Shown here in pieces: positions 1-11,787 of a stretch of 11,787 nucleotides of DNA (positions are counted from its first letter, which is position 1; each line of letters opens with the position of its first letter). Under the pieces are notes generated by a model. That model saw nothing but the letters and a program-made list of their open reading frames with translations, did no database searches and was not told the origin of the DNA. The stretch is from a virus (Duplodnaviria > Heunggongvirae > Uroviricota > Caudoviricetes): IMG/VR virus record IMGVR_UViG_648276671_000012. One strand, given 5' to 3'. The position numbers and the translations under genes were made by a program.

Positions 1-1672
1 CACCTGCGGCCTGCGCCCGGCGGCCCGTTCGTCCGGTGTTATCAGGGAATGTACGGCTGATCAGTTTTGCGCGCCGGATGCTGTCACCCTTAAACAGGTA
101 AATACGTTTACCAAGGCCATCACGACGGCAACGACGCCAGAATTTATAGGCATTATCAGTGACCCCGTCTTCACCGCCGGAGTCCACCGCCATTGCCATC
201 AGTCGCATTTGTTGAGAAGGATCGGAGGCCAGCGGCCAGCTTTTATGAAAAACATCCGTCAGCAGGACATCCCAGTCTTCCGGATAGCTGGCCGGATCAA
301 TTCGCTGGCTCTCCCCGTCGCAGTCACTGCGCAATGACTGCGTGATGTTGTAACGATCAATAATCCAGCGTTCGCCACGACTGCCATAGCCCGTTACCTG
401 AACCACAAAACGGCGATGACGTCCCGCCTGCACATCCACTGTCGCCACAAGGAAATTAATGCCATCCGGCACACTGCGGGAAGGAACTGGCTCTGCCCGC
501 TGCTCAAGCAGTTCACTTTTTCGTTGCTCCATGCTGGCACGAGGAAGATAAGGCAATCCCCAGTCGGTGTTGATAACCGCCCTGAGTGTTTCTTCGCTTC
601 CTGTCGCTTCATACTCCTGTTCTGCAGTCAGTAATTTGTAAACCAGTTGCGCCCAGGTCTGATACGCAGCAGCTGGCCCTTCCATCCAGAAACTGGCGAT
701 ACGGGAGCGGCGCGGTTCACCGGAAACGTTGCCGTTACGATCAATGACCTGACCTTCACGCAACCAGACTCCTGCACTATTGAGCTCACGCTTTTTCTCC
801 GCAGTGATAATGCCGCTGCAGTGCGGGCAAAGTAGATACGCCGCCTCACTGGCTTTAAAGGGATCCGGTTCATTACGGTAGCCGGTCATGGCATCCATGG
901 CTGGCTGAAAATATTCACCGCAGTGCGGACATGACCAGTACCAGCGGCGGCGGTCACCACGATTGTAAAGGGAAAGAATACCAGTCGTCGGTGGCGCTTC
1001 ATGAGGCGACTTACGTCGCCATTTGCTATCGCAGATGTCACGTCCCGGCGAGCTCTCCACCAGAGTCATCCCGGCGGACATAAATGTGGTGGTACGTTTT
1101 GAGGCCAGGGAGAAACCATCACCCTCGCTGTCGATATTCTCCGGAAAACGGTCGTAATCGGTTAAGGCGACAAACCGGTAATCCGACGACGACATAATGT
1201 TGACCGAGGGCCAACCAATTTTAAGGAACGAGCCATCCCTGAACGTCTTCTCATGGACATTATTGTCGTTACGACGTGGACTCATTCTTTTCTTTACCGC
1301 CGCACTGCTTCTGAACGTTCTGTCGAGGCGCTTTTTAGAATGCTCGCGGGCCTTATCTTCGGTCATCTGCACAACGAGCATGTCCGAAGGATCGCAAACG
1401 ATGGTATAGACAATCCATCCATCGATCAGACCAATGGTCTTCCCTGTTCGCGCAGGACCAACAAAAATCACCGCATCGTATTCACGCGATGCCAGGCAGT
1501 TCATGGGCTCAATGATGTAGGGTGTCAGTTCAGGATCCCATGGCACCGAGTTACCAGCCCCCTTGGGAACACGCATGAATTTTTTAACAGCCTCCGAAAT
1601 CGGCATGCGACGTGGTGGGGAAAATCCTGCCGATATGTCCCTTCCCAAATTTCGGGCTGATGAAAAACCCAT
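1..1672 (-). CDS. phage terminase large subunit (lambda gpA-like), N-terminal ~557 codons; 3' end lies beyond window start
   Basis: Manual minus-strand translation from ATG 1672..1670 (GGAGG SD about 5 nt upstream) is open to position 2: MGFSSARNLGRD..., Walker A VIFVGPARTGKT, zinc-finger-like WYWSCPHCGEYFQ and LCPHCSGIIT. Absent from the ORF track because the ORF is incomplete in the window. Sits directly downstream of the small-subunit gene. Confidence 0.8.
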   Translation of the reverse strand, partial: MGFSSARNLGRDISAGFSPPRRMPISEAVKKFMRVPKGAGNSVPWDPELTPYIIEPMNCLASREYDAVIFVGPARTGKTIGLIDGWIVYTIVCDPSDMLVVQMTEDKAREHSKKRLDRTFRSSAAVKKRMSPRRNDNNVHEKTFRDGSFLKIGWPSVNIMSSSDYRFVALTDYDRFPENIDSEGDGFSLASKRTTTFMSAGMTLVESSPGRDICDSKWRRKSPHEAPPTTGILSLYNRGDRRRWYWSCPHCGEYFQPAMDAMTGYRNEPDPFKASEAAYLLCPHCSGIITAEKKRELNSAGVWLREGQVIDRNGNVSGEPRRSRIASFWMEGPAAAYQTWAQLVYKLLTAEQEYEATGSEETLRAVINTDWGLPYLPRASMEQRKSELLEQRAEPVPSRSVPDGINFLVATVDVQAGRHRRFVVQVTGYGSRGERWIIDRYNITQSLRSDCDGESQRIDPASYPEDWDVLLTDVFHKSWPLASDPSQQMRLMAMAVDSGGEDGVTDNAYKFWRRCRRDGLGKRIYLFKGDSIRRAKLISRTFPDNTGRTGRRAQAAG

Positions 1673-1680
1673 TATTCCTC

Positions 1681-2238
1681 CTAGAGACTCTCTCCTTCCT
1701 CATCAGGAATTAATTCAGCAGCACAAGCCTCGTAGGATTTTTCCTGAAGAGTGTATCGCAGGTCATCAATTGCCTGCTGTACAACGCCGACGGCCTGAGG
1801 AGTCAGGGCGCAATCGCGTTCAAGAACATCCGGAATTGTCTCCAGAACCTGGACGACAGCCTTTCTCATGGACGAATAGACGATGACTACTTCATCAACG
1901 GGGATGAGTTTTCGCTGCTCCTTTTCCAGCTTGATCCTTTCATTTTCAGACTGGTACCAGTCCTTTCTCTCTTTCGGCTCCATACGGGATGGATCATGAA
2001 CAGAGTCTGCTGCCTCATGCTTCACACTAAACAGGGCTGGCCCGACATGCTGCAGGGCGTAAACGGGGTTCCCCCTGACAGTCGCAGCCACAGGAGTGTT
2101 GGCCGCGAGAAGCCGTTTTTTTACTGTGTCCCGGTGAAGCCCAAAGGCCTCAGCGATTTTAAAAACACTCCAGTAATAAGCATCACCGATCCCGCTCACA
2201 TTTGACATAAGCAACTCCATCTGGCAGGTGAAAATCAT
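1681..2238 (-). CDS. phage terminase small subunit (lambda Nu1-like, NohA-like)
   Basis: 185-aa ORF with N-terminal HTH-like segment (SVFKIAEAFGLHRDTVKKRL) and acidic C-terminus (AAELIPDEEGESL), resembling lambda Nu1. Lies between a cos-like site and the large terminase gene. True start may be the internal ATG at 2208..2206, which has a GGAG SD; the first ATG at 2238 lacks an obvious SD. Confidence 0.7.
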   Translation of the reverse strand: MIFTCQMELLMSNVSGIGDAYYWSVFKIAEAFGLHRDTVKKRLLAANTPVAATVRGNPVYALQHVGPALFSVKHEAADSVHDPSRMEPKERKDWYQSENERIKLEKEQRKLIPVDEVVIVYSSMRKAVVQVLETIPDVLERDCALTPQAVGVVQQAIDDLRYTLQEKSYEACAAELIPDEEGESL

Positions 2239-2387
2239 GTTTATTTATATATTTCAATTAATTGTAAACTGGTCTAATGACAGGGAGAAAAAAATATTGT
2301 ACAGGTAAAAAGAGAAATAACTTTTAATTATCAATAAATTACCAAACATGCTGCCGCCGCCATGGAAATGCAAAAACTAGCCTTTTT

Positions 2388-2407
2388 CCGCGACGCTCCC
2401 GCCCCGT
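2388..2407 (-). other. putative cosN (cohesive end site), lambda-like variant
   Basis: Minus strand reads ACG GGGCGGGAGCGT CGCGG, against lambda ACG GGGCGGCGACCT CGCGG as recalled (16 of 20 identical, both flanks conserved). It is a GC-rich island in AT-rich DNA about 170-190 bp upstream of the Nu1-like start, where cosB is expected. Confidence 0.5.
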
Positions 2408-2765
2408 GGCAGGGGCCCCCACCGGGAGGACCCGACAGCCTGACAGCCGTGACGAGCATCTGATACAGCGCTTTACATAATGGCATAGGAATAATTCAGA
2501 AGGACATCACAGCATGCCCACACAAATTAGTGTGAGTGTCCTGTTTCTTCCTACGCACAGGACTGACGAGCATGAGGGGAAAATACGCGAACCATAAATG
2601 CCTCATCTTCAGCAATGCAGCCGAACAGGACGATATTGTAAATTCACCTAATTACGAGGACATTGCAGTAGTTGAATTGCAGCTCTGTATTAGCCTGACA
2701 GTGACAGAATGCGATATTGACTCTGTCACAGGTGGAATAGTTTGAATGATTAGCAGTTATGGTGC

Positions 2766-2972
2766 TCAGTCAACCACCAGGGAATAATCCTTCGAATTCT
2801 TATCGTGCTTCACCAACGCTGCCTCAATTGCCCTGAATGCTTCCAGAAACACCTGATGTTCTATACATGCAATTACAACATCCGGGTAACTCATAGAAAT
2901 GGTGCTATTAAGCATATTTTTTACACGAATCAGATCCAACGAGAGTTCATCAGCAGATTGTTCTTTATTCAT
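2766..2972 (-). CDS. hypothetical small acidic protein (68 aa), moron between cos and ydfO-like gene
   Basis: ORF with GGAG SD 9 nt upstream of ATG (2972..2970). No recognisable motif. Occupies the position where I believe K-12 Qin has a small ORF between nohA and ydfO, but the sequence is not recognised. Confidence 0.4.
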
Positions 2973-3272
2973 TTTGTCGCTCCATGCGTTTGCTCGTCAT
3001 CTAGCGGTTAAAATATTACTTCAAATCTTTCTGCATAAAAGAGGAAAAGTATGAAAGTTTGAGTACATCGACCTTACATACATCTGTCGGTTGCATATCC
3101 CTCCTGGATGCCAGCAAGGCTCAACTTTGTTACGCAACCAACACTATTTATTGAAAACAGGCTTAATATTTGACATAAATCATCAACAAAACACAAAGAG
3201 GTCAGACCAGATTGAAACAATAAACACGATAATGCAAACTACGCGTCATCGTATCACATGGAAGGTTTACCA

Positions 3273-3683
3273 ATGGCTCAGGCTGCCATTTTTAAAGAAA
3301 TATTCGATCAAGTGCGTAAAGATTTAAACTGTGAATTATTTTATTCTGAGCTAAAACGTCACAATGTCTCACTTTATATTTACTATTTAGCCACAGATAA
3401 TATTCACATTGTGTTAGAAAACGACAACATAGTGTTAGTAAAAGGACTCAAAAAGGTTGTAAATGTTAAATTCTCCAGAAACAAACATCTTATAGAGACC
3501 TCCTATAATAAGTTGAAATCAAAAGAAATCACATTTCAACAATACAGGGAAAATCTTGCTAAAGCAGGAGTTTTCCGATGGGTTACAAATATCCATGAAC
3601 ACCAAAGATATTACTATACCTTTGATAACTCATTACTATTTACTGAAAGCATCCAGAAAACTACACAAATCTTACCACGCTAA
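3273..3683 (+). CDS. ydfO: DUF1398-family protein (YdfO-like), 136 aa
   Basis: ORF on the strand opposite the late operon; start chosen at ATG 3273 (GGAAGG SD 6 nt upstream) rather than the track ATG at 3258. Assignment rests mainly on synteny with K-12 Qin (nohA-ydfO-gnsB-ynfN-cspI) and matching length, not on recognised sequence. Confidence 0.55.
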
Positions 3684-3785
3684 ACCATAACGTCCGGCTT
3701 CTCTCACTCCTGAGCCGGACTGCATTGGTTTAATAAAAACCATCAACAATTGTGATTTAGATATTCGGAACCATTCAAATATAAC

Positions 3786-3809
3786 AAAACCCCGTAAAAA
3801 CGAGGTTTA
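3786..3809 (-). terminator. putative intrinsic terminator downstream of gns-like gene
   Basis: Minus-strand RNA CCUCGU-UUUU-ACGGGG hairpin (one G.U pair) followed by UUUUGUU. Confidence 0.4.
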
Positions 3810-3834
3810 TGGATAAATTTTATTATTGAATACA

Positions 3835-4007
3835 TCAGATTAAATTAATCTTGACATCATAGCTTTCAAGACCCGTCATTTTTTCCCGTGCGGTAAACTG
3901 AATACTGGTAACTTCTTTCCCGGTCTTTTTCTTAAGTTCAATAATTTTTTTGTTATATATTCAGAAATATCTGCTTCTGCTTTTGTTTTTAAGTCTTCAA
4001 TATTCAT
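3835..4007 (-). pseudogene. gnsB/gnsA-like gene disrupted by -1 frameshift in a homopolymer (A7 on coding strand, T7 on plus strand 3945..3951)
   Basis: Minus-strand translation from ATG 4007 gives MNIEDLKTKAEADISEYITKK and then goes out of frame to a stop at 3878..3876. The -1 frame continues IIELKKKTGKEVTSIQFTAREKMTGLESYDVKINLI to TGA at 3837..3835. Both halves resemble GnsA/GnsB (57 aa) as recalled; one extra A would restore a 57-aa ORF. Confidence 0.6.
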
Positions 4008-4179
4008 CATTTCCTCTTTTAGTCTGTTATGACTTTCCAGTTACACTGGTAAGTCGATTATATGGTGCAAACGTGTAAAAGATAAGATGAAACATCGCAA
4101 TAATCAACATACGATAGTCTAAATTTTACACAAACAGACAAAGAGAATTTTCCTGAATTATCAATGCAATAGCATCAAA

Positions 4180-4335
4180 TCAACTCAAGAGCCTTATTGC
4201 TGCTTCCAGAATTTCTTCTGAAGTAACATGCCGATCCGCGGCTACATAAATGACTTTATGATCTCCGGTCAGAGATGGAAACCCTGCGGCCATTACAGTA
4301 AGGTGTGTTTTTTCGCCATTTGGATATTCACGCAT
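4180..4335 (-). CDS. small hypothetical protein, 51 aa from internal ATG (possibly YnfN-like by position)
   Basis: Track ORF 4180..4371 is 63 aa; the ATG at 4335..4333 gives 51 aa (MREYPNGEKTHLTV...). Lies between the gns-like gene and cspI as ynfN does in K-12 Qin. Sequence not independently recognised. Confidence 0.45.
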   Translation of the reverse strand: MREYPNGEKTHLTVMAAGFPSLTGDHKVIYVAADRHVTSEEILEAAIRLLS

Positions 4336-4453
4336 GATGGTGTTAACTCCAGTCATCGCTGGCACTACCACTGCTGGTTCAGAGTTAAAAAAACTATGAT
4401 TTTTTTCATGATGTTACCGTAGTATGTGAGTATCCATCGAATAGACACCAAGC

Positions 4454-4474
4454 AAAAAAGCTCCCGAAGGAGCC
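4454..4474 (-). terminator. putative intrinsic terminator between cspI and the 51-aa ORF
   Basis: Minus-strand GCUCC-UUCG-GGAGC stem with tetraloop followed by U6; about 210 nt downstream of the cspI stop. Confidence 0.4.
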
Positions 4475-4680
4475 TTCATTTTCACTTTTTTAAATCCAAC
4501 GACAGACGGCTGGCATTTAAGTATTGTGAAATATTATCAAATGTAATCATCATTGATTTACAAAAGATACATTTTGCCCCGAAAGGATTCATGTCAGAAA
4601 CATCAAAAGATGATGTTCTATACTGGGAACCATGACAACACGGGCATCTAAAGTGAATATGGTTTGTAATATTGTCTACC

Positions 4681-4893
4681 TCAAAGCGCCACTACATGAA
4701 CAGCGGCAGGACCTTTAGGTCCGTTCTCAATACCAAATTCAACTTCCTGATTCTCAGTTAATGTTTTGAAATCGTTGCTCTGAATTGCTGAGAAATGGAC
4801 AAACACATCTTTGCTGCCATCTTTCGGCGTGATGAAACCAAAACCTTTTTCAGGGTTAAACCATTTCACTAAACCAGTCATTTTGTTAGACAT
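4681..4893 (-). CDS. cspI: cold-shock protein, CspA family (CspI-like), 70 aa
   Basis: [34 protein letters not shown]... with RNP1-like KGFGFI and RNP2-like VFVHF motifs. cspA-type SD (AAGG about 9 nt upstream of ATG 4893..4891) and a roughly 360-bp upstream intergenic region consistent with a long csp 5' UTR. Confidence 0.9.
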
Positions 4894-5255
4894 AATTATT
4901 ACCTTTTGAAGAAATTAGCCCTTGGGCAGAATGGTCCGAAAAAAAATATCAGAGAGAAAAACCAACAAGGAAATCTCAAGAGGTACAAATAATAAAATTA
5001 TAACAATGACTGCTTCAGATAAATTTGTAACAAACCAGAACACCATTAACGCATGATTAACCACCCATAGCAAGGATTACTTTTGTAAAGAAAAACACAG
5101 CAATGAAAGAATAGCTTTATTTATTAATAAAACGTGTCATTCTGATTAAGACCTTTTATCTTACCCTTAAGATTTCAGGAATTTTGACTCATGGAAGAGT
5201 CCTTTTTATTTAAATTTTACATTCAGCGATGTAAATGTTCCGATTTAATATTACC

Positions 5256-6279
<1,024 letters not shown>

Positions 6280-6283
<4 letters not shown>

Positions 6284-6591
6284 ATATATTTATGATGAGG
6301 ACGCTCGTGCTTATTGGCAGGATTTTCAATCTTAAAGGAGTACTGATGCTGCAGATAAGACTCAACTTTTTCTGACAATTTTTCTGCTACTTCCAGGAAG
6401 ACTTGCCGGACGCTCCTTCTGGCTGCTGCCTCATAAAACTCCAGCGCAGCTCCTTCAACACGGTCCATGGCGACATCCAGGCCAAAAATTTCACCGTCAA
6501 AGCGTTCTTTGTCCTGTAAGGCTACAGTTACCGTAACTTTATTCTCAAAATTACGGACTCCTTTCACAACCAGTTCATAGTCTTGAGTCAT
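6280..6591 (-). CDS. ydfR: DUF1327-family protein (YdfR-like), 103 aa, inserted between holin and endolysin
   Basis: ORF tightly packed in the lysis cassette: stop overlaps the endolysin start and its start is 5 nt after the holin stop. Assignment by synteny and length. Confidence 0.65.
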
Positions 6592-6595
6592 TGGA

Positions 6596-6811
6596 TTACT
6601 CTCCTCTCGCAGCCTTACGCCTGTCTTCTTTAATCTTGAAATAAAGATTTGTCAGATACGTCAGCAGGCCAAAAACCAGGCTACCCAGCACACCGATTGC
6701 AGCCCACTGTGACGGAGTTACTTTATCGAGTAACTGCAATGCCCAGAAACCAGCATTACCCGCCGATGTGCCATAGGCAACACCTGTTGTTAACTTATCC
6801 ATTGATTTCAT
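6596..6811 (-). CDS. essQ: phage 21 S-type pinholin with dual-start motif (M-K-S-M), 71 aa
   Basis: [71 protein letters not shown] closely resembles phage 21 S68/S71 as recalled. Two TMDs; GAGG SD 4-5 nt upstream of ATG 6811..6809. The track's 96-aa version (to 6886) is probably an artefactual N-terminal extension. Confidence 0.85.
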
Positions 6812-7030
6812 ATCCTCACCCCGATGTACACGGATGGTGCAATATGTTTGAAAAGATCGGAGTCTACGGGGTAGTTTTGACAGCACACGTTGTTCTCAAC
6901 GGCGCTAAAAAAACATACACATTAAAAATGTGGGTAATTATTTTGAAAGAAAGTCATATATAAAATAATAATACGAGAAATGTTTTCATATTTAGTGTAC
7001 TGTATACGGCCATTTATACAGGAAAAGCCT

Positions 7031-7201
7031 ATGTCAGAACGTAAAGACTCAAAATCACGCCGTAATTATCTCGTTAAATGTTCCTGCCCAAACTGCACCC
7101 AAGAGTCAGAACACAGTTTTTCAAGAGTACAAAAAGGTGCCCTTTTGATCTGCCCTCATTGCAACAAAGTATTCCAGACAAATCTTAAAGCTGTAGCCTG
7201 A
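7031..7201 (+). CDS. small zinc-ribbon protein, 56 aa (two CxxC pairs), strand opposite to late operon
   Basis: Internal ATG at 7031 with AGGA SD; CSCPNC...CPHC motif. Possible -35/-10 (TTGAAA, 17 bp, TAATAA) near 6943..6971. May correspond to the small protein YnfU of K-12 Qin, but this is recalled, not verified. Confidence 0.5.
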   Translation: MSERKDSKSRRNYLVKCSCPNCTQESEHSFSRVQKGALLICPHCNKVFQTNLKAVA

Positions 7202-7261
7202 TTGATTTTATTAGTAACAAGTATTTTTTATATTTTAATAATATATTTAAAGCAGATAATA

Positions 7262-7285
7262 AAAAACCCGCCTGAGCGGGTTTGA
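7262..7285. terminator. intrinsic terminator hairpin (AACCCGC-CTGA-GCGGGTT), strong on minus strand, weak on plus
   Basis: GC stem with tetraloop flanked by an A-run and a T-run. On the minus strand it is followed by U6 (downstream of cspB); on the plus strand it follows the zinc-ribbon ORF. Confidence 0.55.
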
Positions 7286-7564
7286 GATTGTGGTGCTTTT
7301 TGTGGGAGTCATCCACTTACGCACTTTGTTTTGCCATGCCAGCAGTTAGCTTCTGCTGTAAAACTATTCATGCAGCAAACCTGCACTTCACCACAATGGT
7401 TAGCATACTTTTCCTGATTAAGATTTTGCCAAATATGCTGGCCATTGTTTCATGTATTGGACCTCCTTACTTTTTATTAAAGAGATCCAATATTCACTAC
7501 TCTGTCCGTATCTCTACTCAGGCATCAGCCTTCTTCGTTATCGTATACAGACGAGCGATGAATT

Positions 7565-7780
7565 TTAATCAGTAATGATGACATTTACTGCTGCAGGACC
7601 TTTAGCACCACTCTCTATAGAGAAGGTAACCTTTTGACCTTCAAATAAGGTTCGATAATTATCATTCTGAATCGCAGAAAAATGCACAAACACATCTTTA
7701 CTACCATCAACAGGAGAAATAAAGCCGAAACCTTTATCAGCGTTAAACCATTTTACTAAACCAGTCATTTTATTTGACAT
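7565..7780 (-). CDS. cspB: cold-shock protein, CspA family (CspB-like), 71 aa
   Basis: [64 protein letters not shown]...; RNP1/RNP2 motifs. Sits between Q and the holin as cspB does in Qin. Confidence 0.9.
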
Positions 7781-8078
7781 TCTACATTCCTTAACTTGAG
7801 CCTTTCGGCATAAATGGTTTGCATAACAGAAACGACTTCGTACTTAATTGGAGAGACTCAAAGAAGGAATAAGTGAATAACACCTGAAATGAGAACTGCT
7901 TTAGTAAACTACTTCGTATATCGTCTGTTCTTCAAACCGAAGCAGTCATTAACTCATAGTTGAACATATGAAGCAATGTTTATTTTAGACATCCAGCCAC
8001 CTTCAACCCTATCAACAAAGTAGTTTTCTCCAGGAACGTGTGTATGGTGCACCAGGTTATCAGTATTAAGGAGTTTTT

Positions 8079-8284
8079 CTGTCCCCTAAAATGACAGGAA
8101 TTGCCAAAAACTTTGACTACAAAAGCAGCAAAGGTCTTATATTCCCATCCGATGGCGTATCGATGCCCAGCTTCACGTTTCAGCTCTCAATCTTCGAGAT
8201 GCAGAAGAAATTACCACAGGATTACGCGTGGAATTTTGCCGGATAAATGGTTCGCGTGGACCTTCAACTGCCAATGTTTATCCC
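8079..8284 (+). pseudogene. cspF/cspH-like cold-shock gene remnant: start codon changed to CTG, -1 frameshift near 8156, altered C-terminus
   Basis: Frame A from 8079: [26 protein letters not shown] (recalled CspF: [26 protein letters not shown]). The match then continues in another frame: [50 protein letters not shown] is intact at 8068..8073. Product reconstructed by hand across two frames. Confidence 0.6.
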
Positions 8285-8324
8285 GGGATGAGATTCAATA
8301 TCTCTATTGCCCCATTTAAAGCAC

Positions 8325-8350
8325 AAAAACCCGCTTATAAGCGGGTTTTC
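8325..8350. terminator. perfect palindromic terminator hairpin (AAAACCCGCTTA/TAAGCGGGTTTT); candidate tR' of the late promoter and terminator of the cspF-like gene
   Basis: 24-bp perfect palindrome 8326..8349 flanked by A/T runs, about 110 bp downstream of the Q stop on the minus strand. Confidence 0.55.
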
Positions 8351-8396
8351 TACTTTTTTCTAAACGTCGGATACACAAAGCCCATCGTTGAGAAAA

Positions 8397-8425
8397 TCTT
8401 ATCCATGTTTTTTGAAAAATGCAAA
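8397..8425 (-). promoter_or_regulatory. candidate late promoter PR' (with Q-utilisation region) immediately downstream of Q
   Basis: Minus strand TTGCAT (8425..8420), 17-bp spacer, TAAGAT (8402..8397). Location matches lambda-type PR' between Q and tR'. Hexamers are each 4 of 6 to consensus, so the call is positional. Confidence 0.35.
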
Positions 8426-8455
8426 CATCATGTCGCCATCTTCAGCAAAAATCAT

Positions 8456-9208
8456 TTATCTCGTCACCTTCCTCAATTGCGCTTCCGCGTATGCTTCTTC
8501 CTGCCAGCACTTTGTTACCAGTTTACCAATGACGTCCGCATACCCCTTATACCACTGATAATCGGTCAGGTCTGGTACCAGCTTCTGGACATGACGTCGT
8601 GCCAGCGTGGTCGGTAAACGACTAAACCGGTTTCCATTACAACGCCCACAAATCTTATATACCGGTACGCCATGAAAACGGGTTCTTTTTTCATCCAGAA
8701 CAATCCCTTTACCCTTACACCCTCTGCACGCTGTGCTGACTTCGCCCTTACCATGGCAATGCTGACATAGTTCCTTCACCCATTCTTCCTTGATTACAGA
8801 TTCCCCGCGTCTGTAGTGTTTCACCACTTCGCGCAATACATTATAAAATCCCGTACCTGAACAATGCTCACAGCGAGCCTTACTTGCCGCAGACCTGGAG
8901 TAATCAGCAAAGGCAAAACTCACGAGGTAAGGAATAATCTGTAACCGGATTTCTTCACTCAATTTGTTCAATGTCGGGTTATCCAGTGCCATCGCGTAAT
9001 TTAGCAGGCCTTCAATCGCAAACTGAGGGTCCTGAACACCAACTTTTGCCAGAAATAAGGCCAACCCAAGTGGTGCTTTCGACTGCACCATCCCCTGCGC
9101 TGCCATTACATCCGTAATTGTTAAACAACCGGTGCCTGTCGCTGGAGCGTCATCGCTCAATTTTGGAGATTTTGGGGAGTAATATTTTGGTAAGGCTTCA
9201 AGGTTCAT
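8456..9208 (-). CDS. quuQ: late-gene antitermination protein Q, 250 aa from internal ATG
   Basis: Track ORF 8456..9238 (260 aa); the ATG at 9208..9206 with GGAG SD gives 250 aa. Multiple Cys/His zinc-finger-like motifs ([31 protein letters not shown]). Located upstream of the PR'/tR' module and the lysis genes. Confidence 0.8.
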
Positions 9209-9221
9209 GCTCGTTCTCCAC

Positions 9222-10271
9222 TTACGCCAGTACGCCAATTGCCAGCGCGCGATCGATAAAACGAAATATCAGCTCCAGTTGGGAGCCATACTTCTCTTCA
9301 AATGCCACTGTATCCGTATGCAGCTCGTTGTGATGCTTTCTGCACAAAGGCAACACAAAGAGATCATGTGCTTTTGTTCCCATTCCGCCCTGCCCGTGAC
9401 CAATCAGATGATGCGGATCGTCGGCTGGCATACCGCAGCAAGCACACGGCTGTGTCTTAACCCAACGTGTGTATTTCTCCTTAACCCAGCGGCGACGTTT
9501 AGGCAGCTTCATGAAAGATTCCGGAGACTCTGGATCAACGGTGATGCTTACCACCGTCTTTTCCTGTGGTAGTTTTTGTTGCTGGTGGGCGTAAGGCAAC
9601 GGTGCAAGATTTTTTGTGCGTTGTTTCAATATGCTGGTGGCGGTCTGCTCTCCCGGTACGATGTCGCTCTCGCGGTACACCGAGCAGATTTTTTCCGCTG
9701 GTATTCCCAGCGAACGACGTAATACCGCTTCCGGTAGCGCGTCCGCCACCTGATTGCGGACCGCCCACCAGGATAATTCAGCCAGAGATAATTCACGTTC
9801 CTGCGTACCGCTTATTGCGTGACGGATGACGTCAATCACCCATGCTGTCAGATTTTGTTGAGCAAGCAGATCCAGTGATTCCGATGTCTGGTCACGCAGT
9901 TGGTTGTCGCAGTGCCAACACAACACCATTGCGCCGGTACCATAACGGTGAATGACTGTTTCAGAGTGATGGTAATCGCCATTAGGCCACTGGCAGGATG
10001 TAACATGACGTAATAGCCAGTCAGACAATGCGCCAACGCCGCCAGCAGCACGAATCACCCGTTCGTTACTAAAAAACGGCAGCAATGTTTTGTCTTCCGC
10101 CAGCGGCTGGCGAACGGCAGGAACGACTCCGGATGGCAGATTACGCATGCTTTTTGGTTCCGGTTCCACCAGCACTCGAGGATTATGAAATATCTGTATG
10201 GATTCACGGCCCGGCTTAAGGACCACCAGCCCAAGCTCAGGCACCAGAACAGGTCTAAGTAATACCCGCAC
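9222..10271 (-). CDS. ydfU: DUF968-family protein with C-terminal HNH (His-Me finger) nuclease-like motif (YdfU-like), 349 aa from GTG
   Basis: C-terminal CACCGMPADDPHHLIGHGQGG...HDLFVLPLCRKHHNELH fits a C-x2-C...D-x-HH...N...C-x2-HH-x3-H HNH pattern. A GTG start at 10271..10269, 1 nt after the stop of the upstream 92-aa ORF, gives 349 aa. The track's ATG at 10310 would overlap that ORF by 38 nt. Confidence 0.75.
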   Translation of the reverse strand: MRVLLRPVLVPELGLVVLKPGRESIQIFHNPRVLVEPEPKSMRNLPSGVVPAVRQPLAEDKTLLPFFSNERVIRAAGGVGALSDWLLRHVTSCQWPNGDYHHSETVIHRYGTGAMVLCWHCDNQLRDQTSESLDLLAQQNLTAWVIDVIRHAISGTQERELSLAELSWWAVRNQVADALPEAVLRRSLGIPAEKICSVYRESDIVPGEQTATSILKQRTKNLAPLPYAHQQQKLPQEKTVVSITVDPESPESFMKLPKRRRWVKEKYTRWVKTQPCACCGMPADDPHHLIGHGQGGMGTKAHDLFVLPLCRKHHNELHTDTVAFEEKYGSQLELIFRFIDRALAIGVLA

Positions 10272-10272
10272 G

Positions 10273-10551
10273 TTACCTCCAGATCCGTTGCTGGAAAGTG
10301 CGGGACGCACGTGGTGGGCGTTCGGAGTAAGGCAATCTGACTGAGATTATCCAGTGACGGTAGTCGAGGCTAAGGGCTTTCTTAACCTCGTATCCGCGCC
10401 TGCGGTAACACTGAATTATCCATTCAGCCTGCTCTTCAGTGCATGGAGGGTGTTGGAACCATTCAGACTTGAATGCGTGAGAATACCGCTCGTGCGTGCA
10501 GACAAGAACGGGCGAATTATCAGAATTGTAATATTTTACGTTGCGTGCCAT
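10273..10551 (-). CDS. hypothetical Cys/His-rich small protein (92 aa), translationally coupled to the DUF968/HNH gene
   Basis: ORF whose TAA stop is 1 nt from the GTG start of the ydfU-like gene (TAA-C-GTG). Contains C-T-H, PPC and QCY motifs. Function unknown. Confidence 0.5.
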   Translation of the reverse strand: MARNVKYYNSDNSPVLVCTHERYSHAFKSEWFQHPPCTEEQAEWIIQCYRRRGYEVKKALSLDYRHWIISVRLPYSERPPRASRTFQQRIWR

Positions 10552-10617
10552 CGGTTTTCTCCGGTGGCACGGTGTTACTCAGCGGGAGTTCAGCCCCGCG
10601 CAAGATTGTAGATGAGT

Positions 10618-10869
10618 TTATTCTTCTGCAAAAGCTGAAAAGCCTGCTTTTATTCCGATCTCTTTCAGTGCCTGTAATGAAGTGACAAACTCACCTTCGC
10701 GCAAGATAAATCCGTCCGTGACCCGAGCATCCACAAAATTAATTAACGCAGCCCCATTCTTTCGCAAACACAGAATGCGGTAATGACTAACAATGTTTCC
10801 ATTTTCAACGCACACAGCATAGAGGCCATCTTCACAAAAAATTTTACGCAGTTCTTCGATGTTCATCAT
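10618..10869 (-). CDS. hypothetical protein, 83 aa (Rem-like by position and length)
   Basis: ORF between the hok terminator and the 92-aa ORF. Same length and relative position as Rem of K-12 Qin as recalled; sequence not recognised. Confidence 0.5.
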   Translation of the reverse strand: MMNIEELRKIFCEDGLYAVCVENGNIVSHYRILCLRKNGAALINFVDARVTDGFILREGEFVTSLQALKEIGIKAGFSAFAEE

Positions 10870-10998
10870 CAGAATCCTTCCGGATAATTAGCTCTCCCCT
10901 TTAAGGGACCATCCCTCTTATCCCTGCGCGCTACTTAAGTATTTTTGATTCTATTCCGGCACCGTCCAGAACTTCAAACGCGTTGAAAATAAAAACAA

Positions 10999-11024
10999 AA
11001 ACCCGCCGAAGCGGGTTAAGTGCG
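10999..11024 (-). terminator. intrinsic terminator at 3' end of the hok transcript (ACCCGC-UUCG-GCGGGU + U-run on minus strand)
   Basis: Hairpin followed by UUUUGUUUUUAUUUU on the minus strand, about 70 nt downstream of the hok stop. A further 9-bp-stem hairpin (11057..11078) lies in the 3' UTR, consistent with an fbi-like fold-back element. Confidence 0.5.
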
Positions 11025-11085
11025 GGTGCGTTGAGGATGCCTGCCACATCAGAGGTGGCGAGGGATTTCTCCCTCGCCGGGTCTC

Positions 11086-11241
11086 TTACTCCTCAGGTTC
11101 GTAAGCTGTGAAGACAGCGACCTCCGTCTGGCCGGTTCGGATTCGTACCTCGCAGAGGTCTTTCCTCGTTACCAGTGCCGTCACTATGACGGTTAAACAG
11201 ATGACGATCAGGGCGATTAACATCGCCTTTTGCTGCTTCAT
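11086..11241 (-). CDS. hokD: Hok-family type I toxin (HokD/RelF-like), 51 aa
   Basis: MKQQKAMLIALIVICLTVIVTALVTRKDLCEVRIRTGQTEVAVFTAYEPEE: single TMD plus conserved Hok C-terminal motif. AAGGAG SD 8 nt upstream of ATG 11241..11239. Confidence 0.85.
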   Translation of the reverse strand: MKQQKAMLIALIVICLTVIVTALVTRKDLCEVRIRTGQTEVAVFTAYEPEE

Positions 11242-11298
11242 AGCCTGCTTCTCCTTGCCTTTCGGCACGTAAGAGGCTAACCTACATTTGCTAGACAT
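11086..11298 (-). CDS. mok-like in-frame upstream extension of hok (70 codons)
   Basis: In-frame extension MSSKCRLASYVPKGKEKQA + Hok, resembling the N-terminal extension of MokC as recalled (MLNTCRVPLTDRKVKEKRA + HokC). Conservation of the extension at protein level supports a mok-type regulatory reading frame. Confidence 0.45.
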   Translation of the reverse strand: MSSKCRLASYVPKGKEKQAMKQQKAMLIALIVICLTVIVTALVTRKDLCEVRIRTGQTEVAVFTAYEPEE

Positions 11299-11787
11299 AG
11301 ATTGGGCCTCAGATTAATGTTAAGCGTCTTGCAGGACGCGTAATGTTAACTGGGGCTTTTCTCTATCTGCCGTTGGTGGCATGCCCGAGGCAGATAGCCT
11401 CAAGCACCCGCTGCAATTCTACTTAACTCTTCTTTTCCCGCAAACCGTTTTTATCCAGCACAGCAAATAGCCGCATTAAGCCAATGTTGTTCATTGTGTT
11501 TACCGCCAGTATTCAATACAAATGACCGCCATGAATACCCCTACAAAAAGCGCACTTATATGTCCAAATATTAATGTCAAGACATCAACTTCCTCCATCT
11601 CCTCCGCTGTTGCGATGATAGGTATACATGATGCAAACAACCAGATTGCAACAAATAAAAACTGCAAATGTCTTTTTCATTATTCCCCCGACAATCAATG
11701 AGTAATAACATTTAAACATAGATTGACATAATCAGACATAAAAATAATCTAGGCTGCACATTTTGCTTACATCGTGTTATAGGGAAG

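Follow-up and report, generated by a model that had tools for sequence, protein, structure and literature searches.

The probable cos site of a Tritos/cdtI-type lambdoid prophage of Escherichia coli and its variation from lambda

cos sites of lambda-like phages and the cosQ-cosN region of the window

In lambda-like phages, cosQ and the CG pairs at the nicks are conserved, and differences at bp 7 to 12 of the cohesive end are common (PMC4669245). Relative to lambda, N15 differs at positions 9 and 12, and Gifsy-1, which Feiss and colleagues count among the lambda-like phages, differs at positions 8, 9 and 11; in lambda itself, C11G produces no phenotype and the symmetric G2C lowers the yield about tenfold (PMC4669245). 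Phage Cr-LKS3 has experimentally determined 5′ cohesive ends of 9 nt that keep these conserved flanks and first bases (PMC9303873), and mEp213/LLS carry a putative cos, GGGCGGCGCGCT, our reading of the mEp213 site matching the published one (PMC12315714). Tritos, prophage 3 of the adherent-invasive E. coli LF82, is spontaneously induced, reaches 2.8e6 DNase-protected genomes per mL, formed a plaque on MG1655 hsdR- and is a siphovirus by imaging (PMC9928086).

We analysed an 11,787-nucleotide stretch of viral DNA, referred to below as the window. On its minus strand, 2407..2388 reads ACG-GGGCGGGAGCGT-CGCGG and matches ACG-GGGCGGCGACCT-CGCGG of lambda (NC_001416) at 16 of 20 positions, with all four mismatches in the core, at cohesive-end positions 7, 8, 9 and 11; a sequence-only reading of this DNA had reported the same match, and it was recovered in full. 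The cohesive-end 12-mer GGGCGGGAGCGT occupies 2404..2393 (minus strand), with cos bp 1 at 2404, and the 16-bp cosN nicking site CG-GGGCGGGAGCGT-CG spans 2391..2406 (minus strand; cos bp -1 to 14). The left half, GGGCGG, and the CG at both nick flanks, 12 bp apart, are the same as in lambda, a conserved left half and CG flanks being the features that mark a lambda-like cosN (PMC4669245). By this alignment, the nicks are predicted at 2405/2404 on the minus strand and at 2393/2392 on the plus strand. A scan of both window strands returned this single site at 14/20 or better against lambda cosN.

The packaging-termination signal cosQ, GGGTCCT, lies at 2433..2427 on the minus strand (cos bp about -28 to -22); all 7 bp are identical to lambda cosQ, and the spacer from cosQ to ACG measures 19 nt, compared with 20 nt in lambda. 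Of the interval 2240-2410 that the sequence-only reading had assigned to the site, cosN falls inside, but the site reaches further, to cosQ. The window contains a single copy of the cosQ-cosN composite, GGGTCCT-N17-23-CGGGGCGG-N6-CG, and 200 shuffles yielded no copy at all. cosQ is kept in cdtI, Tritos, mEp213, PhiR40_1, phi458, VT1-Sakai and CP-1639 and is unchanged in 58 IMG/VR relatives, the sequence further upstream being variable. Directly upstream of cosQ, at 2434-2453 (minus strand), is a tandem repeat of GGCTGTCA, present in two copies in the window and three in Tritos, whereas the corresponding sequence of cdtI is unrelated to that of the window.

Downstream of cosN, an I2-like spacer, AAAAAGGCTAGTTTTTGCATTTCC, with an A5 and a T5 tract, covers 2365..2387 (minus strand; cos bp 18-40), sharing its position and its poly-dA/poly-dT character with lambda I2 at bp 18-50 (PMC4856287). 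Most of this spacer, to about bp 34-38, is common to phages with two other cosB/TerS types. The putative TerS binding region, cosB, is assigned by position only to 2215..2364 (minus strand; cos bp 41-190), and it has no sequence in common with the lambda R sites. A GC-rich near-palindrome, CATGGCGGCGGCAGCATG, sits at the R3 position (2364..2347, minus strand; cos bp 41-58), and candidate cosB repeats on the same strand are CCTGTACA at 2305..2298, CCTGTCAT at 2284..2277 and CACCTGCCAG at 2230..2221. A repeat search of window 2190-2480 gave no convincing R3/R2/R1 repeat family, returning only AT-rich inverted repeats of low confidence. Relatives whose TerS is another DUF1441 protein show inverted R-like pairs at matching places in cosB, for example in Gifsy-2 (GTGTCGAA...TTCGACAC) and in Providencia phage PSTCR8lys (GGTGACAG...CTGTCACC). 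An IHF consensus site, TATCAATAAATTA, lies within cosB on the plus strand at 2329..2341 (cos bp 64-76), the position of lambda I1. Exact matches to WATCAANNNNTTR number one in the whole window, both strands included; as chance alone would supply about 0.9 IHF consensus matches per window, the site is informative through its location and not through its presence.

Terminase genes and the proposed start of packaging

The gene next to cos encodes a TerS of 175 aa (1681..2208, minus strand), assigned to Pfam DUF1441 (E 1.6e-44) and to phrog_141, "terminase small subunit" (E 7.9e-65), and 100% identical to the TerS proteins of cdtI, Tritos and HannyBb. From cos bp 1 to the TerS ATG at 2208 there are 197 bp, close to the 191 bp between cos and Nu1 in lambda, and the lambda-like distance claimed earlier is borne out. 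The first ATG of the open reading frame, at 2238, is probably not the true start; the equivalent of 2208 is used by RefSeq and by the Tritos record, and that of 2220 by the cdtI GenBank record.

The gene had also been called Nu1-like, which describes it in part. DUF1441 is the sole Pfam hit of the protein, with no match to Phage_Nu1 (PF07471), the family that lambda Nu1 and the Gifsy-1 TerS both match at about E 1e-100, and BLASTP of the window TerS against Nu1 gave a non-significant E of 4.6. At the profile level, reciprocal PHROG cross-hits of nearly full length link the two proteins: residues 18-158 of the window TerS match phrog_57, the Nu1 family, at E 1e-9, and Nu1 in turn matches phrog_141 at E 5.6e-8; an hhalign comparison with Nu1 is collinear and weak, with a probability of 23%. 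PDB sequence and profile searches with TerS returned nothing relevant, and its single-sequence AlphaFold model (pLDDT 44.7) was too poor for use. Collectively, these comparisons give fair grounds to regard TerS as a remote homologue or functional analogue of Nu1 that stands outside the Nu1 family proper, so that the remote kinship holds and the membership of Phage_Nu1 does not.

The large terminase TerL, of the gpA family, occupies 1..1672 on the minus strand and runs off the window, which includes the first 557 of its ~699 codons and no head genes. Both Pfam domains of the family are present, GpA_ATPase at E 3e-80 (269.8 bits; cut-off 25.6) and GpA_nuclease at E 1.5e-55 (189 bits; cut-off 22.5), the latter reaching profile position 201 of 294 before the window ends. 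The Walker A motif GPARTGKT lies at residues 72-79 and CPHC motifs at 248 and 282, in agreement with the Walker A and zinc-finger motifs described in the sequence-only reading; its view of an intact-looking terminase pair likewise agrees with reading frames that stay open as far as the window reaches. TerL shares 25% of its residues with lambda gpA (E 1e-17) and, over its 557 residues, differs from the Tritos protein at 4 positions and from the cdtI protein at 7.

Taken together, the window and lambda share cosQ GGGTCCT, the ACG/CGCGG flanks, the GGGCGG left half, the 12-bp nick spacing, an A/T-tract spacer, an IHF consensus at I1 and a terS about 190-197 bp from bp 1 that is followed by a gpA-family TerL. 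The head module, as far as the annotation of relatives indicates, would be unlike that of lambda; it would follow the Gifsy-2/cdtI type, in which protease and capsid form one fused gene.

The following scheme for the start of packaging takes its nick positions, IHF binding and TerS binding from homology to lambda (PMC9026076, PMC4669245). After induction, the DUF1441 TerS would bind cosB (about cos bp 41-190), aided by an IHF bend at bp 64-76, and would place protomers of the gpA-family TerL on cosN. TerL would then nick the two strands 12 bp apart, on the minus strand 5′ of G 2404 and on the plus strand at 2393/2392 (bp 12/13), leaving 5′-GGGCGGGAGCGT as the overhang of the left end and its complement on the right end. 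Once the ends part, terminase would remain on the cosB-bearing end and dock on a prohead, and translocation would proceed toward terS and terL, that is, in the direction of falling window coordinates. Packaging would end at the next cos, where cosQ (2433..2427) would be needed besides cosN. The Cr-LKS3 TerS is also a DUF1441 protein, 38% identical to that of the window, and the measured ends of this phage thus support extending the lambda model to phages with a DUF1441 TerS.

A cos shared with Tritos and cdtI, and alternative readings

In a megablast search against phage records, the records of cdtI (AB285204.1 / NC_009514.1) and Tritos (OV696610.1) were both found to start at the G that corresponds to window 2404, with GGGCGGGAGCGT, and both end in ...CTGCCACG (...CCACG). 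As deposited, these starts and ends have the layout of a cos-to-cos virion chromosome. Collinearity with Tritos continues across this junction: window 1..10568 aligns, at 98.25% identity, to Tritos positions 38180..46360 and on through 1..2404. Within cos bp 1-200 there are 4 differences from Tritos (at 98, 120, 140 and 167), which leave cosN unaffected, and 6 from cdtI; the cosN 12-mer and its flanks are identical in cdtI and Tritos. The packaging module as a whole is consequently of the Tritos/cdtI type, with TerS 100% and TerL ~99% identical and cos bp 1-200 showing 4-6 differences. We are highly confident that this is the genuine cos of a Tritos/cdtI-type lambdoid prophage and that its differences from lambda represent natural variation. 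In the literature searched, the 12-mer was not found on either strand in the relevant phage papers, nor did an accessible paper turn up with a physical map of virion ends that carry it; the record starts of cdtI and Tritos may therefore rest on homology to lambda and not on end mapping, which sets a ceiling on our confidence in the identity of the site. The feature itself is already known: it belongs to a common E. coli prophage family, and its 12-mer opens two published phage genomes.

The identity of the site is a separate matter from the state of the prophage, and on the latter an alternative deserves serious weight, though we consider it unlikely: the cos may be intact but idle, in a prophage that is defective through deletion of head or tail genes or loss of excision, so that its own machinery never cuts there and at most a compatible phage resident in the same cell could act on the site in trans. 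The element resembles Qin, and its counterparts in relatives occupy the ydfJ/rspB locus. Qin, at the same locus in K-12, is defective, which speaks for an idle cos. So does the prophage of APEC O78, where a 100% identical 241-bp cos region lies by TerS, TerL and portal genes that are followed by a truncated protease/capsid gene fused to a tail-fibre remnant, and so does EC43, the closest full-length relative (99.3%), whose integrase contains an internal stop. However, the head and tail gene set of EC43 is complete, Tritos is viable with the same module, and in the window the genes for Q, holin, ydfR, lysozyme, the Rz-like protein, TerS and, to the edge, TerL are open and full length compared with those of relatives. 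The APEC O78 element (NC_020163.1, 2369779-2410019) is itself an example of an intact cos in a defective prophage, a large deletion having taken out most of its head and tail genes; it is 98.98% identical to the window over 1..8280 and ~95% identical beyond.

A second alternative accepts the site as a real cos and moves the nicks, so that the overhang would be shorter than the predicted 12-nt 5′ ends. There is precedent for shorter ends in the 9 nt measured for Cr-LKS3 (PMC9303873) and, possibly, in the spacing between ACG and CGCGG, which is 11 nt in VT1-Sakai and 10 nt in CP-1639. In the window, by contrast, the flanks are spaced exactly 12 nt apart, as in lambda, Gifsy-1, mEp213 and Fels-1, and the ends of the cdtI and Tritos records fit a 12-nt layout; we hold a shift of the nicks to be very unlikely.

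The sequence-only reading had left two explanations of the core side by side, a variant cohesive end or a decayed site, and it is the former that stands, given that the 12-mer starts two phage genomes and that Tritos forms plaques. Decay would mean that an ancestral GGGCGGCGACCT was damaged by four substitutions and is no longer cut by terminase. Four differences from lambda within 12 bp would suit such damage, as would the lower two-fold symmetry, computed at 8 of 16 bp in the window cosN versus 10 of 16 in lambda, the lambda value agreeing with the published one (PMC9026076). Yet the identical 12-mer is found in 78 of 80 relatives and in viable phages, the changes are confined to the tolerant right half of cosN (PMC4669245), and decay would not leave cosQ, the left half and both CG flanks untouched. 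Comparison with the cos regions of lambda and its relatives likewise finds cosQ and the CG flanks intact and places the Gifsy-1 end a single substitution away. Indeed, the site in the Gifsy-1 record (NC_010392) reads GGGCGGCAGCGT, as described (PMC4669245), and this Salmonella cohesive end is identical to that of the window at 11 of 12 positions, both carrying the A8, G9 and G11 changes from lambda; position 7 is C in Gifsy-1 and G in the window. Outside the site, the two differ: the TerS of Gifsy-1 belongs to the Nu1 family proper, in contrast to the DUF1441 TerS of the window, and the Gifsy-1 head genes are of the lambda/21 type. We thus attribute the four differences from lambda to natural variation within the half of cosN, the right one, that tolerates change, and regard decay as highly improbable.

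A chance resemblance of GC-rich sequence to cosN, with no role in packaging, could draw on the 7 of 2000 random first-order-Markov windows that reach 16/20, a rate that is low but not vanishing, and on the exact 20-mer copies that arise by chance in high-GC Sphingomonas and Streptomyces contigs, but it is effectively refuted by terS 197 bp downstream, cosQ at the correct distance in a composite cosQ-cosN pattern, collinearity with Tritos and homology to phage genome ends that spans hundreds of bases.

Distribution, mosaic structure and neighbouring features

Among the 80 IMG/VR contigs that encode this TerS (99-100% identical), 78 carry the same 12-mer, and in these contigs cosQ and cosN are invariant and cosB is nearly so. 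Of 5,426 complete E. coli genomes, 861 contain the 241-bp cos region at a coverage of at least 80%, and ~2,100 contain its cosQ-cosN part. With one genome taken per species, the exact 20-mer occurs at seven loci. Four of these carry the cos of the window, in E. coli, in E. ruysiae and in MAGs binned as Veillonella and Bacillota, and all four are probably E. coli-type prophage DNA; the remainder are the two high-GC chance matches, in the Sphingomonas and Streptomyces contigs, and one unrelated context in a Treponema bin. By marking the ends of the virion chromosome, the site helps to orient and delimit prophages of a very common E. coli family, and from it one can predict the co-resident elements that this terminase could package. 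Past annotation its significance is small, the conservation of the left half, the CG pairs and cosQ together with drift of the right half having already been published (PMC4669245).

Other natural cosN variants include GGGCGGCGCGCT in mEp213, GGGCGGCGTGCT in PSTCR8lys and GGGCGGCAGCGG in Fels-1, that of mEp213 departing from the window at positions 7-11. mEp213/LLS and the mEp460-like phages possess the same kind of module, a DUF1441 TerS with a gpA TerL; the N-termini of their TerL proteins are ~77-79% identical to that of the window and their TerS proteins ~41-42%, and their cosB diverges from about bp 35-40 on. The mEp460-like phages PhiR40_1 and phi458 nevertheless have a cosQ-cosN-I2 unit identical to that of the window.

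At least three cosB/TerS types are combined with this unit (window 2365-2433; bp -31 to +35, both approximate), represented by the window and cdtI, by PhiR40_1 and by phi458, with TerS ~42% identical between types and a mosaic breakpoint at about bp 34-38, near the end of I2. One of the 80 contigs with this TerS carries the Fels-1-type cosN GGGCGGCAGCGG in place of GGGCGGGAGCGT, which indicates that the right half of cosN and TerS are not strictly linked. It is conceivable, though in our view doubtful, that the cosQ-cosN-I2 unit with this right half is an exchangeable cassette and that right halves define compatibility classes of cohesive ends, beyond neutral drift; if so, where many lambdoid prophages occupy one E. 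coli cell, membership of a class would restrict or steer both cross-termination and the circularisation of hybrid chromosomes. In the Stx1 prophages VT1-Sakai and CP-1639, cosQ and the ACG/CGCGG flanks are retained around GGGCGGGCGGG (11 nt) and GGGCGGGCGG (10 nt), respectively; with such spacing, either the cohesive ends must be shorter or the cos sites are damaged.

A 51-aa open reading frame at window 2331-2486 (minus strand) covers both cosQ and cosN; its counterparts in HannyBb are annotated as hypothetical proteins, and it is most likely a spurious call on a cis-acting site.

Beyond the packaging module, the late region of Tritos is collinear with that of the window, including the morons cspB, cspI, ynfN, gnsB and hokD, and the cspI, cspB and hokD cargo is described in Tritos as highly expressed (PMC9928086); cdtI carries cdt genes, unlike the window. 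Window 10569-10996 and 11430-11787 are non-collinear with Tritos, and identity to the Tritos hokD region falls to 95.6% in the intervening 10997-11429. The last 359 bases of the window are also absent from EC43, the closest E. coli relative. Rfam searches identify the leaders of the cspI and cspB morons, both of the cspA thermoregulator type, and a sok antitoxin RNA by hokD, at 4654-5039, 7518-7941 and 11236-11409 on the minus strand.
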